64,000 nt of DNA from Eledone cirrhosa (GCA_964016885.1 OZ024756.1:17980001-18044000); one strand, 5' to 3'; shown: positions 1-48,279, numbered from the stretch's first letter. The notes: generated from the sequence alone by a model not told the origin. Translations and numbers: made by a program.

Positions 1-70
1 TACTGGTGTGGAGTATCAACTGTCTCAGATGGAAATCCACGAAGTAACATCCGCAAACTCAATGTACTTG
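1..70 (+). CDS. Ig receptor exon (5' truncated by window): end of a V-set Ig domain, YWCGVSTVSDGNPRSNIRKLNVL(G)
   Basis: Frame 1 reads Y-W-C (Ig F-strand) and ends in a G-strand-like KLNVL. Phase-1 donor G|gtaaat at 70/71 joins in frame (G|GT) to the acceptor at 1783 or 3257. Confidence 0.8.
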
Positions 71-299
71 GTAAATAATTTAACTTTACCTATCTATTTG
101 TCTGTCTATAAGTCTCCCTATCTCTCTCTCTATCTATTCATTGGTCTGTCTTTCTCTCTCTCTATCTATACATCTGTCTGTCTATCCATCTGTCTATATT
201 TCTGTCTGTCTGTCTATCCATCCATCTATTTATCTCTCTGTCCATCTGTCTGTCTATCCATCTGTCTGTCAGTCTATCTATCTCTATTTATCTATGGAC

Positions 300-1055
300 A
301 ACTTCCAGAGGTCCCTGGCCTGTCAGTGTTACTGAGGAGCTCTACCATTTCATGACAAGATCTACAGGCATGGATGCCCTGGCAGAGATCCTTCCAAGAG
401 GACATGTCCAAGATGCGGGCAGGACATTGAAATTGTCCTGCACACAATTGTACACTGCCCGGGCGTAACAGACCTGTGGAACTATGCAGAACAACTGCTG
501 TCACATATGGGACAAATCCAGTTGACTGCCGAGTCCATAGTAAGGATCAAACTGCCAACCTCTTTCAAAAATGAATGAGAGGTGGTTTTCCTCTGTATAG
601 GGGCTATGGTGAAAGAGGTTATATGGTGGACGAGATTGAGAGGACTGAGGACAGATGCCTTTCTCTCTGGACAGCAACTCATTCCCTTCTTTAGGTACCA
701 CTTTAGAAAGAGAATCAGAGTGGAGAGAGAGGCACTACACCCCAGTAAATTTACTGAATGGTGGGTGAATGTGGTAAAAATAGCCCGAGTGATTGGGCCT
801 TCTCTGTATATAAACCTGTAGGTTGAAGAAGAAAGCAAAAGGAGGAAAGGAGCACTTGCACAACACGCTCCTGAAGTTGAGGGTTGTTCTATCGACGGGG
901 TATTAAACAACCCATTTGTGGCGCCTCCCCCCTATTGGGGATTTTGATTGTTAAATTTGTCTTTCAATATTTTTACACGATTGTATGTAAAATCCCCGGC
1001 ATGTGTCCTTGTTCTGTCCCCTTTTCTTGTGCGCCCTTGTGGCTAATAAAGAAAT
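300..1055 (+). mobile_element. Degenerate L1/Tx1-like LINE 3' fragment
   Basis: Translates LIPFFRYHFRKRIRVEREALHPSKFTEWW, resembling an L1-Tx1 ORF2 C-terminus. Ends in gcccttgtggctaataaagaaa, a tail also seen at about 50525-50547. Flanked by (TCTA/TCTG)n. Confidence 0.5.
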
Positions 1056-1782
1056 ATATCTATCTCTATTTATCTCTCCATCAGTCTATCAGTCCATCTG
1101 TCTCTCCCTCCCTGTTTGTCTCTATCCATCTGTCTCTCTGTCTATCTCTCTGTCTGTCTGTCTCTTCTGTTTATCTGTCTATTTGTCATCATCATCATCA
1201 TCGTTATTCAAAATGTTTATTGGACAGACAGTTGTGACCCACAACATCTGTCCACATTCATTAAAGGTAGGATGCTTTACGGATATTATTTGATTGATTT
1301 CATTGTTGAAGACTAAAATTTAAGAAATTGAGAGATAAAAAAATATGATCTACAATGATAAATATTTCCTCAGGAAATTATTTACAATTTTTACATTTGT
1401 GACTGTAATTCTAATGAACTATATTGCATTTCCATTATTCAATGAAATATTTTGAAGCATTTATTGAAATTATTGATTATTTCATTACTAAAATAGTTAA
1501 TTAATGCATGATTCTTATATAAAATTATATTGGAATATTTTAATTTAAATAGGGACTCTTTAAAACATGTTTTGTTTCATAGAACCAGTGCCAGTTCTGG
1601 CAGGTTTGGTATCAAAAGGGTTAAACTGTGCTTTTTACTAATGATTGCTGATCTCTACTTCAGAACCACCCCTTTTAACTAAGGTTTCTCTCTGTTGGGC
1701 CTTGCTACTGTTGATCATTGTTGACTTCATTAATAATCTGTATTTGATGTCCCTTCTTTTCCATGTTTTTTTTTATGTACAG

Positions 1783-2088
1783 GTCCACCTGGGTATCCAA
1801 ATCTACAAGCTCCATCTGGTAATCTGATTCTAGGCGACACTGTCACTGTTTTTTGTGAAAGCAATGTAGGCAAACCAGCTAAGAATTTAGAACTCTGTAT
1901 TGACAGTGGTGGCATTGATTCCACAAACGCTATTTGTAGTAATGGAACTGAACTAGTTGAAATAGAAAATAAATGCATTTTCACACAAAATGTAAGCCAG
2001 ACATTTAGCTTGAGTGAAAAAACACGTCGTGCTACATGCAAGGTTGGATCAACTACATTCAAATCAGAAAAATCCTGGAATGTATACT
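1783..2088 (+). CDS. Ig receptor C2-like Ig exon, copy A (GPPGYPNL...FCESNVGKPAKNLELC...ATCKVG...WNVY)
   Basis: Acceptor ttttatgtacag|GT and donor T|gtaagt. 306 nt, phase 1-1, no stops. Has the C-x-S-x-x-G-x-P motif of C2-type Ig domains. Not in the ORF track in this frame. Confidence 0.88.
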
Positions 2089-3256
2089 GTAAGTTTACCT
2101 TTATTATTCTTTAATATATGTATTATTTTATTCTTTACAGTTATTAGACTGTAGTCAAGCTGCGACATCAACTTTAAGGGACATTAGGCAATCATATCAA
2201 GTCTGGTATTTATTTGGTCCATCTCCTTTTTGTCAACATACTAAGTTATGGTTGATAAACGCGCACACACACACACCACAACCACAATCACCACCATTAC
2301 CATCATCATCACCATCATTTGACATCCATTTCCCTGCTAACAAGGTTTGGTGTTACGGTACACCTTGACAGTGTTTCATTGGTGTCACTGCACAGCTAGA
2401 CAGACACAGATGCATTATTTTAAACCTAGATAGACAGCCTGTAATGTAACTTGCAGCATCCATGTCACATTTGTTCATTCTATTCTACAAGATGCACTGA
2501 ATGCACTTTTTACATGCCACTTATACTTGAGTTATTATGTATATATGTGATCTGAATAGGTGCAGGCATGCCTGTGTGGTTAAGAAGTTTGCTTCACAGT
2601 CTTGTGGTTTTAGGTTCAATCTCATTGGTTTCAAATAGAATCATCCTTCTGTATGCCTTGACCCTCTGTCAAATGTAGGATCTACATCATCATCGTCATC
2701 ATTATTCAAAATGTTTATTGGACAGACAGTTGTGTGACCCATAACATCTGTCCACAGATATTATTTGATTGATTTCATTGTTGAAGACTAAAATTTAAGA
2801 AATTGGGAGATGAAAAAATATGATCTACAATGATAAATATTTCTTCAGGAAATTATTTACAATTTTTACATTTGTGACTGTAATTCTAAGGAACTATATT
2901 GCATTTCCATTATTCAATGAAACATTTTGAAGAATTTATTAAAATTATTAATTATTTCATTACTAAAATAGTAATTTAACGCATGCTTCTCATATAAAAT
3001 TATGTTGGAATATTTTGATTAAAATAGGGACTCTTTGAAACATGTTTTGTTTCATAGAACCAGAGCCATTTCTGGCTGGTTTGGTATCAAAAGGGTTAAA
3101 TTGTGCTTTTTGCTAATGACTGCTGATCTCTACTTCAGAACCACCCCTTTTAACTAAGGCTTCTCTCTGTTGGGCCTTGCTACTGTTGATCATTGTTGAC
3201 TTCATTAATAATCTGTATTTGATGTCCCTTCTTTTCCATGTTTTTTTTATGTACAG

Positions 3257-3544
3257 GTCCACCTGGGCATCCAAATCTACATGCTCCATCTGGTAATCTG
3301 ATTCTAGGCGAAACTGTCACTATTTTTTGTGAAAGCAATGTAGGCAAACCAGCTAAGAATTTACAACTATGTATCGAAAATTCACAAAACAGTCAATGTG
3401 TTAATGGAAGCGAACCAGTTAAACAAACTGATGTATGCATGTTCACACAAAATGTAAGCCTGACAGTTAAGCTGACTAAAGCGACAATCCGTGCTACATG
3501 CAATGTTGGATCAAATAAATCAGAACAGACCTGGAATGTATTCT
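3257..3544 (+). CDS. Ig receptor C2-like Ig exon, copy B (GPPGHPNL...FCESNVGKPAKNLQLC...ATCNVG...WNVF)
   Basis: Acceptor ttttatgtacag|GT and donor T|gtaagt. 288 nt, phase 1-1, open. Lies inside ORF 3238-3570. Confidence 0.88.
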
Positions 3545-4399
3545 GTAAGTTTATTTCTTTTATTCTTTAATCTTTTTATTACTTTATTCTTTAGTTATTA
3601 GACTACAGTCAGACTAGGGGATATACTTCAAGGAACATGAGGCAATCATATCAACTCCAGAACTTATTTTTTCAAGTCTGGTATATATTTTGTCCATCCT
3701 CTTTTTCTCAACATGTTAAGTTATGGGCTGTAAACACAGATGCACACACACACATACATACACATACATCATCATCATTGCCTTCATTTAACATCCATTT
3801 TCTGTGCTAACAAGGGATGGATGGGTTGTCACAGGCGGAATCAACTCTCAACAAGTGGAGTTACTGACCTCTCAGACAAGCCTGTATCTGACATATGTTA
3901 CTGTGCTGTATTGAGTGTATTTTATCATAGTACCAGCACTAGGGATGTTGTCATGTCTAATGACACAGCTGAAGTATCCTTCTGGTCCTTTTTTTGGAAG
4001 GTTTTCTGCAACTGGATACCCATCTTTTCACCAGCACTAGGGAGGTTGTCATGTCCCTATGTTATGAGTATTTGACAAAATACATTCTGTTATTTGTACT
4101 TGCTTTCTGTTTAAGTTCAAATCTTGCTGTGGCCCACCTGGGTTGTAGACTTAATCCGGTACCTGGTTTAACAACATCACCTGGCCCTTCTTGGGTGCCT
4201 TTAGCAGAATCCACTCTGTTGCAAGCATTCGAGCCAGGTTTCTGATTTCAGCAGATCATCCCCCATTCCTTCCAACATTCATAAAGACCCAGGAAAGTAT
4301 TATGGATACTGGCCCCTTCTGTCCATTTCTAAACAATTAGCAAAAAGTAAAAATGAATGTTTCTTTCAGTTTGGGCAATCAAAGTCTTCCACATTTGGT

Positions 4400-4600
4400 T
4401 CATTGTCATCATTACCATCATCACTATGACCACCACCAGCTTCATTGCCGCCACCACCATCATCATCATTATCACCAGCACCACTGTCATCACCATTATC
4501 ACCACCACCACCATCACCATTATCACCACCACCACCATCATCATTATCATCACCATCATCACCACCACTATCATCATCATCATCATCATCATCACTCATC
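4400..4600. repeat. (CAT/CAC)n trinucleotide microsatellite
   Basis: Seen directly; it produces the spurious poly-H/M/D ORFs. Confidence 0.9.
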
Positions 4601-5023
4601 TATTTTCCATGGTTGCATGAGTTTGACTGGCTGTCATGTTATGTAGCTAGACAGGTCCAGTGACCATGTCTTGCTCATACAATCTGTTTTTGTCTTGGTT
4701 TTCTACAGTGGATGCTCTTCCTAATGTCAACCATCTTACAGGGTGGACTGGGTGCTTTTTGTCATAGCACCACCATTACCACTTTACAGCATATACAGGG
4801 AGATTTCTTGTGGCACCACCACTACCACTTTACAGGGTGATCTGGGTGCTTTTTAATCTTGGCACTTGTACAACCACCTTACAGGGTGGACCAAGTGCTT
4901 TTATTTTGGCACCTGTACAACCACTCTCCTGGAGAGAGAGGAGAGAAAGAGAGTGTATATGTTTCTCTAATACCACCACCATCACCACCTACTACATTCT
5001 CTATGATCTCCTATACATTTCAG

Positions 5024-5293
5024 ATCCCGTTGACTCCATAATGTTCCTTCCATCTGACGATACTTGGACACTGAGCCGTGGCAGCAATAAAACCTTCAAA
5101 TGTGAGGCACTTGGCAACCCCCAACCCACATACAAGTGGCAATTTTTCCCAAAGTCGCCTCAAGACAACCGTATATTCCAGGGTCAAAGTATCAATCTTC
5201 ATTCTCAACAGAGTGGCCGCTATGTATGTACTGCCACCAACACAGTCAGAGGAGTCCAGTATAACATGACAAAAACATTGGTAGTTACTGTCG
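5024..5293 (+). CDS. Ig receptor I-set/C2 Ig exon (YPVDSIMFLP...FKCEALGNPQPTYKW...QSGRYVCTATNTV...TLVVTV)
   Basis: Acceptor tttcag|AT and donor G|gtaagt. 270 nt, phase 1-1. Canonical C-x-A-x-G-N-P-x-P-x3-W and S-G-x-Y-x-C-x-A-x-N motifs. Confidence 0.93.
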
Positions 5294-5650
5294 GTAAGTC
5301 AATTTCTATATCTTTTATATATTTCCTCCCTCTCCCTCTTTCATCCTCTCTTTTTCTCTATTATATAACTTTCCCAAGTAATTGATGACTTGGTCATGGT
5401 ACCCATTGCTCCTACATGCATTCTGCACCACTGTGCACAATCTGCGGAAGTGACTATAACTGGACCATGAAAGCCAAGGTAGTGTTTTCTTGTTCTGTGT
5501 ATGAACATAAATAATACACACACACACACACATATATAGTAATAATAATAAATGTGAAGACTAAAATCCAAAGAGGGCTCGATAAGGATAAAAGCAGCGA
5601 TTCTTTGCTTAGACTTTAATCTGTTATTTTAATAAATATATATATGTGTG

Positions 5651-6062
5651 AAGGCGCATGGCTTAGTGGTTAAAGCATTAGGCTTGCAATCGAAAGGTTG
5701 TGAGTTCAATTCTCGGACCGAGTGATGTGTTGTTTCCTTGAGCAAGACACTTTATTTCACATTGCTCCAGTTTACTCAGCTGTAGAAATGAGATGATAGG
5801 ACTGGGGTCCCTATCATTCCACTGCAAAGTGGTCGTGGAGGTGCCACGGCAAAAAAGTACCCAGCCCACACTGTAAAGTGGACGTGTAGGCGCCACGGAA
5901 AAAAAGCACCCAGCACTCACTGTAAATGAGGTTGGTGTTAGGAAGGGCATCCAGCTGTAGAAATCAAGCCAGAATAAGTTCCTGTATGAGCAAGACAAGG
6001 TCAGCCAATAGGACAACCCATGCTAGCGTGGAAGAAAGGGCGTAAAACAGTGATGATGATGA
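5651..6062 (+). mobile_element. tRNA-derived SINE family A
   Basis: A-box TGGCTTAGTGG, B-box GAGTTCAATTC and a (GAT)n tail. Close copies at 13806-14145 and 26451-26765, partial copies at 17085-17161 and 40037-40277(-). Confidence 0.85.
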
Positions 6063-7907: not shown

Positions 7908-7982
7908 TTGAAATGCCAACAACCCAAAATCCAAGTGCCACTTCTACATTTCAAATAGCTACTGCTGCTCCAGCTACTTCAG
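7908..7982 (+). CDS. Ig receptor Ser/Thr/Pro-rich stalk exon (VEMPTTQNPSATSTFQIATAAPATS)
   Basis: Acceptor ttgattgtag|TT and donor CAG|gtaaaa. 75 nt, phase 1-1, mucin-like composition, in frame with both neighbours. Confidence 0.75.
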
Positions 7983-10850: not shown

Positions 10851-10961
10851 ACAAACAAAAGATTATCCTGGCAACTATTATCCCATTAATCATCATCATC
10901 ATCATTGTGATTATATGTTTCATATTGTACAAAAGAAGAGCTAAACCTACGGAAATTGAAG
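10851..10961 (+). CDS. Ig receptor transmembrane exon (DKQKIILATIIPLIIIIIIVIICFILYKRRAKPTEIE)
   Basis: Acceptor tttcttgcatcag|AC and donor G|gtcagt. 111 nt, phase 1-1. A 23-residue hydrophobic helix followed by a KRR stop-transfer signal. Confidence 0.88.
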
Positions 10962-12876: not shown

Positions 12877-12898
12877 AACCTCCAGAAAAACCACGGAA
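12877..12898 (+). CDS. Ig receptor cytoplasmic micro-exon (EPPEKPR)
   Basis: Strong acceptor ctctctttcag| and donor AA|gtaagt; 22 nt, phase 1-2. Confidence 0.6.
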
Positions 12899-13450: not shown

Positions 13451-13544
13451 GCGGTGAGAGGTTTGTAAGGATAGAGTGTATCTGTTCTAAAAACAGACAT
13501 AGACACAAATATAAACTATAAGTTGGTATTTTGGTTTTCTTTAG

Positions 13545-13627
13545 CAATCACACAGATGTCAACATGATGAATACAAAACCAGACCTTGTCCATTCCACAG
13601 GGATTGCAAGTACCTATGTATAATAAT
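13545..13627 (+). CDS. Ig receptor cytoplasmic exon with apparent +1 frameshift (NHTDVNMMNTKPDLV / IPQGLQVPMYNN)
   Basis: Acceptor ttggttttctttag| and donor AAT|gtaagt. At 83 nt it is one base too long to bridge phase 2 to phase 0. Confidence 0.55.
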
Positions 13628-14918: not shown

Positions 14919-15041
14919 GCGTTTGACCTTGGAGGTGAAGAAGAATTAAACTACATTGATGACAAACCTCGCAGCCGCAAACCAGTAATGCCTCTCCACG
15001 GTTCTGTATCCTCTTATGACACAACATTACCTTGTGTCTAG
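14919..15041 (+). CDS. Ig receptor terminal coding exon (AFDLGGEEELNYIDDKPRSRKPVMPLHGSVSSYDTTLPCV*)
   Basis: Acceptor tttttcctctttttag|GCG; open in phase 0 to TAG at 15039-15041. Acidic-preceded Tyr motif EEELNYIDD. Confidence 0.72.
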   Translation, partial: AFDLGGEEELNYIDDKPRSRKPVMPLHGSVSSYDTTLPCV

Positions 15042-17161: not shown

Positions 17162-21712
<4,551 letters not shown>

Positions 21713-21767
21713 TTGTGCTTAAATGTTCTCACAGGCATACCTTCTGGTAACTTTGTGGATGTATATA

Positions 21768-21824
<57 letters not shown>

Positions 21825-21891
21825 CTCTATCATGTATATGTGTATATGATACAACCGTATCATATACACATATTGTACATGTATATTCATA

Positions 21892-21931
<40 letters not shown>

Positions 21932-23674
21932 TGTGTGTGTATGAGTATATATACATCCCATGCTAGCGTGGAAGAACGGATGTAAAACTGTGATGATGAT
22001 GATGATGCATGTGTGTATGTATATATCATTTTTTTAATCTGATGCTTGACTACACCCAAGACTGCCACAAGTTCTATGCTGTGGAACAACCTATATTATA
22101 TATATATATGTGTGTGTGTGTGTATGTATATTGTTTAATGTGTGTATATGTATATATGTGTGTGTATATATATATATATTATGAGTGTGTGTACATGTAT
22201 ATATATATATTATATATATATATATATCATCATCATCATTTTACGTCCGCTTTTCCCATATATATATATGTATATATATATATATATGTGTGTGTGTATG
22301 TATATTTATGTATGTGTCTGTGTGTGTGTCTCATGTTCTTCGTTTTTTGTGGTAAAGGCTTTATCTCACATAATTATCTCATAATATCGAATCTATGATA
22401 TTTTGATGTTATTTATTTTGAGAACCATACCTTAACATCAGTATGAGTGGCCAGTTACAGCTGGCTTTAACAGAAAGAGGTGAGAAAATTCTGGTTGGAC
22501 ATAACCGGTTTAAATGCTAAAGGGTTAAAGAATTATAGATGATGTGTCTGGGGGAAGTAAGCAAAACAACCGACTGTATTTTTGTTTCAAAACCTTTGTC
22601 TTATCCCTCTGGCAGCAATTTTTGTATCATCTTGTGATTTTGAGGGAGAGGAAGTCAATTAAATTGACCCCAGAGTACCAGTAACTAGCTGGGGTAAATT
22701 TAATTGACTTTCAATTTAATTGACTGTTGGCCTTATGCCTAAATCAGAAACCATTATTATTATCTGCCTGAGGTTAACTTTGCCTTACATCCTTACGGGG
22801 TCAATAAAATAAAGCACCAGTAATGCACTGGGGTAATTGCTGGCCTTTTGCCAAAAGTAGAAAGATTATTATTAACCAAGAGCAATGGCTTGGCAGTATC
22901 GGTAGTGTGTCGGACAACATGCTTCACAGAATAGAGTTACAGCCCTTTGCGTTCTGATTTTAAATACCGTCCAGGTTAACTTTGTCGTTCATCCGTACGG
23001 AATTTGTATAAAATAGAGTACCAGTAATGCACTGGGGACAATTTAATCAATTTTCCCCTTCCCCAAAATTGTTTGCCTTGTGCCGAAATCAGAAACCATT
23101 ATTTGAATGATATCTGTAATACTGACTTAGCTTTTGGTTCTCCTGCTTCGCAGTATAGAGTTACAGCCCTTTTGCATTCTGATTTCAAATCCCGTCCAGG
23201 TTAACTTTGCTTTTCATCCTTACAGGGTCGATAAAATAAAGTACCAGTAAGGCACTGGGGCCAATCAAAGAAATTCCTGAATCTGCTTATCATATTTACT
23301 GCTGTACTATATTTTATTCTATTACTGTTGTTTTCTTTTTTCATTCCATCCCCAACCCTTTTATTTTAAATATTAATTCATCATCAGAAGCTTTTGTTAT
23401 ATTTTGTGAAACAAAAGAAGTTATTTGTTACAATAAACCTTCCTAGGAATTTTAATTCTTCAACCGTCCTTCGCTCGAGTTTCTAGTAAGAGATCCATTT
23501 GAAAAGCAAAACAAAACGGAAAAAAATATATATATAAAAACAAACAAAATGGATCCTTTGGAATGTTCAGTTTTATTTTTACAACTTTTTATATTCAGAA
23601 TTTTTATTAAATAAAGTGAATAATATATATAAATATGTATCTTGTGTTATTTTTGTTAGTCACTATTATTAGTA

Positions 23675-48079: not shown

Positions 48080-48279
48080 NNNNNNNNNNNNNNNNNNNNN
48101 NNNNNNNNNNNNNNNNNNNNNNNNNNNNNNNNNNNNNNNNNNNNNNNNNNNNNNNNNNNNNNNNNNNNNNNNNNNNNNNNNNNNNNNNNNNNNNNNNNNN
48201 NNNNNNNNNNNNNNNNNNNNNNNNNNNNNNNNNNNNNNNNNNNNNNNNNNNNNNNNNNNNNNNNNNNNNNNNNNNNNNN
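48080..48279. other. Assembly gap (200 N)
   Basis: Run of N. Confidence 1.

Follow-up and report, generated by a model that had tools for sequence, protein, structure and literature searches.

The window, a stretch of 64,000 nucleotides from Eledone cirrhosa (GCA_964016885.1 OZ024756.1:17980001-18044000), opens inside a receptor gene whose order, as read from the neighbouring DNA and from comparison with a homologue, is leader, V, C2a, C2b, I, stalk, transmembrane segment (TM) and tail. The leader exon (49 nt, G000:C17:17963637-17963685) lies 16.3 kb upstream, and the V-set Ig exon (342 nt, G000:C17:17979729-17980070), which encodes three Cys residues with one of them in the EF region, starts 271 nt before the window and contributes its 3′ end to positions 1-70 (+). 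There follow on the + strand the two C2-type exons that are the subject of this study, namely exon A (1783-2088, 306 nt) and exon B (3257-3544, 288 nt), and then an I-set Ig exon (5024-5293, phase 1-1, matching Ig_3 at E 3e-10), a Ser/Thr-rich stalk exon (7908-7982, phase 1-1), the transmembrane exon (10851-10961) and three cytoplasmic exons (12877-12898, 22 nt; 13545-13627; 14919-15041), the last with the stop codon of the family. The second cytoplasmic exon is 5 nt shorter than its counterpart in the sister gene described below; this net loss, around 13605, shifts the frame and brings an early stop just before the donor, and the last exon is out of frame here if the deletion is real. At the deletion, contigs from sequencing runs gave the intact form only, but such contigs cannot show the absence of the deletion. 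The three runs represent no more than one sample; they include intron sequence and behave as DNA does. None of the five splice junctions is among the 15 joints listed from them (1418 more lie outside this listing), and on splicing these runs are silent.

Exons A and B are both open, each encodes a C2-set-like Ig domain with five Cys residues, and each is symmetric (phase 1-1), a multiple of three in length and flanked by AG..GTAAGT, just as the sequence-only reading had placed and framed them. The residues at the junctions also came out as that reading had predicted: Gly where V is joined to either A or B, Tyr where either is joined to I, and Cys (T|GT) where A is joined to B. Its “identical acceptors” were, more precisely, near-identical, since the proximal stretch agrees at 130 of 131 positions and a single T in the poly-T run is the sole difference. 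Adjacent, homologous, similar in length, equal in phase and compatible in splice sites, A and B thus look as mutually exclusive exons are expected to look; the same features mark tandem exon duplications in the available part of PMC8373072, and the alternatively spliced subset there is defined by transcripts. The symmetric ends, furthermore, had been used to argue for exclusion and are uninformative in this respect, as all five other C2-set exons found in the genome (three lying in a 15-kb stretch of a single strand) are likewise symmetric in phase 1-1 with a final T before GTAAG. That the junctions match and that T|GT yields a cysteine follows automatically from the duplication of this exon.

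As for domain identity, the Pfam Ig_2 matches of exons A and B are weak (E 0.044 and 0.012) and both fail the curated cut-off, both exons fall into C2-set_2 clusters of the ESM Atlas at 0.95, and the predicted fold of the exon-encoded domain (pLDDT 74.5) has VCAM-1 as its top Foldseek match (E 8e-4). Each of the two looks like a CD80-like C2-set domain. The proteins encoded by A and B are identical at 34 of 40 residues in the first part and at 30 of 55 in the second, where dN is 0.35 and dS 0.2.

This uneven divergence extends into the introns. The duplication comprises the exon together with its upstream and downstream introns (unit A, 1187-2345; unit B, 2685-3815; both on the + strand), with about 1.15 kb per unit and a spacing near 1.47 kb. 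Within it, a tract at 1187-1889 (+) is about 95% identical to its match at about 2685-3363, and similarity breaks once, near 1889 inside exon A, with 31 differences in 677 sites on the left and 97 in 430 (77% identity) on the right; none of 5000 permutations reached this break, nor did any of 5000 in the sister gene. By region, identity between A and B is 94% in the distal intron and also in the opening 121 nt of the exon, 74% in the remaining exon and 80% in the downstream intron. The sites 1660 and 1795, in addition, group by gene copy and not by exon type. A break within an exon and sites grouping by gene copy are what gene conversion predicts, and it is likely from these patterns that conversion has homogenised the left 700 nt or so. 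The sequence-only reading had noticed near-identity over some 130 nt upstream of each acceptor and proposed this stretch as a selector. The near-identity is real, but its confinement to 130 nt is not, as the homogenised tract (~700 nt) spans this stretch and runs on for 107 nt into the exon. With a correction for the choice of window, the quietest 131 nt were unremarkable within the tract (1103/5000), and the special status that an uncorrected Fisher test had suggested (p 0.01) was thereby lost in the window's gene copy; the corresponding stretch of the sister gene was marginal (143/5000), and there might still be room for a slight extra constraint on the 130 nt or for a younger tract. The acceptors of A and B match because conversion homogenised the left ~700 nt, if our reading of the tract is right, and a selector is unnecessary to account for them.

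A head-to-tail tandem duplication of some 45 kb, with its junction near G000:C17:17963520, contains the whole gene; in the sister copy, exons A and B are retained with frames and splice sites intact. An assembly artefact was considered as the source of the second copy and is not favoured, there being no gap between the copies, large insertions by which they differ and, in run X2, at least three haplotypes at 13472-13593. Introns of the two copies differ at 153 of 7525 sites (2.0%), while in simple Nei-Gojobori-type counts the four Ig exons differ at 40 of 920 nonsynonymous versus 3 of 274 synonymous sites (Fisher p 0.009). The excess is found mostly in V (21/257 nonsynonymous; p 1e-7 against the intron rate) and weakly in exon B (9/219, p 0.04); exons A and I had no nonsynonymous excess over the intron rate. 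Positive selection on the V domain is the simplest reading of these counts, the alternative being conversion by an unsampled allele. The genome yielded no family member other than these two gene copies, a number to be read as a lower bound.

Relatives were obtained by a full HMMER scan, in which 22 matches were returned and six used; the other 16 were dropped for want of both cysteine motifs of the family, and the 12 of these that were inspected were generic Ig repeats. Word-index searches with exon A, the sister V and the I exon gave no match. The six comprise three “CEACAM5-like” models of Octopus vulgaris (CAI9737183.1, CAI9737184.1 and CAI9737187.1), a 468-aa protein of Argonauta hians (GAB1610102.1), a single unnamed domain and, more distantly related, the scallop protein XP_069115371.1 (E 2e-7). 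In the four octopod models V, C2 and I are homologous to those examined here at about 31-57% identity and have the same 3+5 cysteines; stalk and TM are present in three of the four, the tail is matched in Argonauta, and O. vulgaris has several gene copies. With V, C2, I, TM and tail homologous and in the same order, and with the conserved cysteines, the gene belongs with these octopod V-C2-I receptors, where CEACAM is an automatic label and not evidence of orthology to vertebrate CEACAMs. Unlike the gene with its two C2 exons, however, the octopod models have one C2 per V. The scallop protein, a molluscan (V-C2)n, is distant; it shares the cysteine signature of V and of C2 but repeats the entire V-C2 pair in strict alternation, not C2 alone.

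The third Cys of V stands just before the F strand in all aligned V domains (two here, two octopod and five scallop), and all aligned C2 domains (two here, two octopod and six scallop) have a Cys near the DE turn, strand names being taken from predicted models and general Ig topology. In the last scallop C2, another pair of Cys residues has been lost together and the one in the DE region retained. From this co-occurrence, the EF-region Cys of V (Cys85) and the DE-region Cys of C2 (Cys64 in A, Cys60 in B) are likely to form an interdomain disulfide. The full-length Argonauta model (pLDDT 38.6) is too poor to show such a bond, and the complex prediction of V with B, with a score of 0.03, speaks neither for nor against it. 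Furthermore, for every one of the 11 homologous C2 domains whose upstream neighbour is known, that neighbour is V; of these domains six come from octopod models (three of them in one probably fused model) and five from one scallop protein; two more homologous C2 domains have no context and stand outside this count. Exons A and B keep all five Cys residues in both gene copies, and A retains the base encoding a conserved aromatic residue before the I domain.

Is there, then, anything that would keep A and B apart? We found no steric, frame/NMD or U2-U12 barrier to their joint inclusion. The intervening intron of 1168 nt, with branch-point-like motifs 38-107 nt upstream of acceptor B, bears out the earlier statement that steric exclusion can be ruled out, all introns of the gene are GT-AG, and the form with both A and B is in frame and without a stop over 443 aa from the leader to the stalk. 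Competing RNA structures had been suggested in its place, but the 130-nt pre-acceptor stretches paired with the flanking introns no better than shuffles did (z -1.5 to +1.6; 14 tests including 4 controls, 20 shuffles each). A scan following the model of PMC6071210, in which a single-copy docking site pairs with homologous selectors beside both exons, gave no docking site common to both copies, the best being equalled or beaten by 8-90 of 100 shuffles in six real tests, and the controls, two introns, gave 10/100 and, owing to a microsatellite, 1/100. Local folding around splice sites (three donors, two acceptors) was likewise unremarkable (z -0.5 to +0.9), and the 44 short inverted repeats in 1-5300 reach 24 nt at most. 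The docking and selector tests weigh folding energy against shuffles, so that short or bulged pairings and all protein-based control would escape them.

With strong splice sites, no exclusion device detected by these tests and, in the available part of PMC8373072, tandem duplicated exons that mostly end up constitutively spliced, joint inclusion is the likeliest default, and a predicted four-Ig receptor with both exons spliced in together stands, in our judgement, about an even chance of being the product of this gene. A tandem duplication copied a C2-type Ig exon and its flanking introns in an octopod receptor gene of the V-C2-I-stalk-TM type; as each copy kept its strong acceptor and its GTAAGT donor, the spliceosome would recognise both by default, and gene conversion would later have homogenised the left ~700 nt. 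In the protein, V may bond to copy A through the V-EF/C2-DE cysteine pair of the family, and the Cys created at the A-B junction, which would lie near the position expected for the V cysteine, may partner the spare Cys of B. Minor skipping of A or B would fit this reading as well. The linker cysteine had been held against joint inclusion, but the argument cuts both ways: Cys counts are 10 for V-A-I, 10 for V-B-I and 5 for V-I, and the T|GT junction adds exactly one Cys and thereby gives V-A-B-I an even total of 16. What counts against joint inclusion is that a C2-C2 arrangement is absent from all family members compared, and that duplications carrying intron sequence often give exclusive splicing, as argued in the part of PMC6071210 available.

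The main alternative is that A and B are used one at a time, so that the V-C2-I layout is kept and either C2a or C2b is bonded to V, with exclusion brought about by splicing proteins or by pairing too weak for detection here; we regard this as a lesser but real possibility. It is favoured by the V-C2 pairing of the family, because B behind A would lose its V partner, and thus by the 11 of 11 informative C2 domains with V upstream and by the EF and DE cysteines kept in every aligned domain; its strongest support is that A and B each retain the Cys predicted to bond to V. A precedent is offered by Hydractinia Alr, in which an EF-loop Cys of an Ig domain bonds the next domain in predicted models (PMC9546547, as far as available). 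The five Cys residues of A and B in both gene copies and the base retained in A for the aromatic residue before I would also be in line with it, and the diverged second halves (30/55 residues; dN 0.35, dS 0.2) would make the two forms differ. However, no exclusion mechanism was found, the objection of an odd cysteine in the A+B form is removed by the junction Cys, the single-C2 relatives are gene models that reveal the ancestral state only, and at such divergence chance often keeps one cysteine or one base. An extended form of one-at-a-time use, which we hold to be rather unlikely, would see a small recognition repertoire here, made of two gene copies in which a positively selected V is disulfide-locked to one of two exclusively spliced C2 domains without Dscam-style RNA pairing, the acceptor-side half being matched by conversion and the other half diversifying, and in which the signalling tail of one copy is cut short, as in paired immune receptors. 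It is improbable that one copy is instead skipped or rarely used and drifting, partly preserved by conversion from its neighbour: this would agree with dN failing to fall below dS outside the converted half (36/130 against 7/35 sites; p 0.40 by Fisher test), with the longer branch of A (0.93 versus 0.18) in a poorly resolved tree and with the tail-exon frameshift in the window's gene copy, but neutral simulations keep the second-half frame and three Cys residues in just 3-27% of cases (0.3-0.1 changes/site), both exonic indels (12 and 6 nt) keep the frame while one of six intron indels is a multiple of three, and neither gene copy has a damaged splice site, so that both exons are probably alive.

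Dscam proteins have about ten Ig and six FN3 domains. The octopod gene has three or four Ig domains, a stalk, a TM and a short tail matching that of Argonauta, and no fibronectin repeats were found in it; by its architecture, then, it is not a member of the Dscam family. As with arthropod Dscam1 (PMC6071210 and PMC3236188, in the parts available), tandem duplicated exons of a surface receptor each encode an entire Ig domain, but the Dscam1 arrays hold dozens of exons and use docking/selector pairing, whereas there are two exons here and no docking signal; the label “Dscam-like” given to the pair did not hold up. Conversion was not found in arrays 4 and 6 of Daphnia, according to the available part of PMC3236188, while homogenisation is clear in A and B, and in that of PMC6339937 octopus DSCAM is reported to be a single gene with one or two isoforms. 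The Alr family of Hydractinia (PMC9546547, available part) resembles the gene in having clustered IgSF receptors with V first and one domain per exon, and its EF-loop Cys is predicted to bond the next domain as proposed here; it lacks the canonical Ig cysteine pair, however, and has an Fn3-like fold, which makes it an analogy only.

If both exons are included, the locus would be an ordinary case of domain gain by exon duplication, in which the duplication itself may supply the Cys for the new domain. If they are exclusive, a surface receptor of a cephalopod would have a splice switch for a whole Ig domain; we found no account of such a switch, nor of this gene family, in the literature listings searched, which hold few subscription journals or preprint supplements, and annotation tables in octopus genome papers may mention the family. 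Whatever the splicing, the excess of amino-acid change in V between the gene copies makes this gene a candidate for a receptor in immune, allorecognition or neural recognition, in an animal for which there are few descriptions of variable Ig receptors.

In comparison with outgroups, B and A have three versus one ancestral sites in the DE hairpin and six versus two in the whole second half (p 0.29); the asymmetry is not significant, and neither C2 tree resolved the order. Exon B, which has kept its DE-loop Cys and looks no less ancestral than A in the hairpin, would fit a position directly behind V, and this counts against joint inclusion.

The entire receptor gene is included in a head-to-tail duplication of approximately 45 kb, which spans contig positions G000:C17:17919600-18009000 (window -60400 to about 29000). 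In the window's gene copy, the sequence shared with the sister gene starts just ~115 nt upstream of the start codon, and because of this short upstream portion, the ancestral promoter may be absent from this copy. Within its leader-V intron is also found the locus L005 (G000:C17:17976434-17977915), which has long open frames resembling, as judged by eye, a LINE endonuclease/reverse transcriptase; the surrounding stretch has no match in the sister gene.

When the V exons of the two copies (window -271 to 70 and G000:C17:17931005-17931346) were compared, 21 nonsynonymous and 3 synonymous changes were found. These cluster in three segments (residues 5-18, 29-57, and 104-108), and residues 58-103 are free of them. 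The copies differ also in the cytoplasmic tail; namely, the second tail exon (13545-13627) of the window's copy has lost a net 5 nt when compared with its sister, and the resulting frame shift truncates the tail, removing the C-terminal part that is kept in the homologous protein of Argonauta hians. The stop codon produced by this shift adjoins the last junction and might escape decay.

Furthermore, the I-set exon (5024-5293) is flanked by inverted copies of a dispersed repeat (4810-4902 and 5822-5926) with a complementarity of 72-75%. In two Octopus vulgaris homologue models, the I domain is either missing (P0001) or cut short (P0002), which makes skipping of the I-set exon a candidate possibility.

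At exon A, a 7-bp stem spanning the acceptor (~1696-1702 with 1781-1787) was present in the centroid fold, as was its counterpart in unit B; the overall folds of the acceptor regions in both units were no better than those of shuffles (z about -0.5). Solely as a control for exon ends, we used three canonical C2-set exons (L026-L028), which lie on one strand within 15 kb at G000:C1:87063000-87080000 and resemble, by eye, nephrin/sidestep. Elsewhere in the window, there are a 4-kb stretch with a GC content of 1-7% (18001-22000) and an assembly gap of 200 bases (48080-48279).
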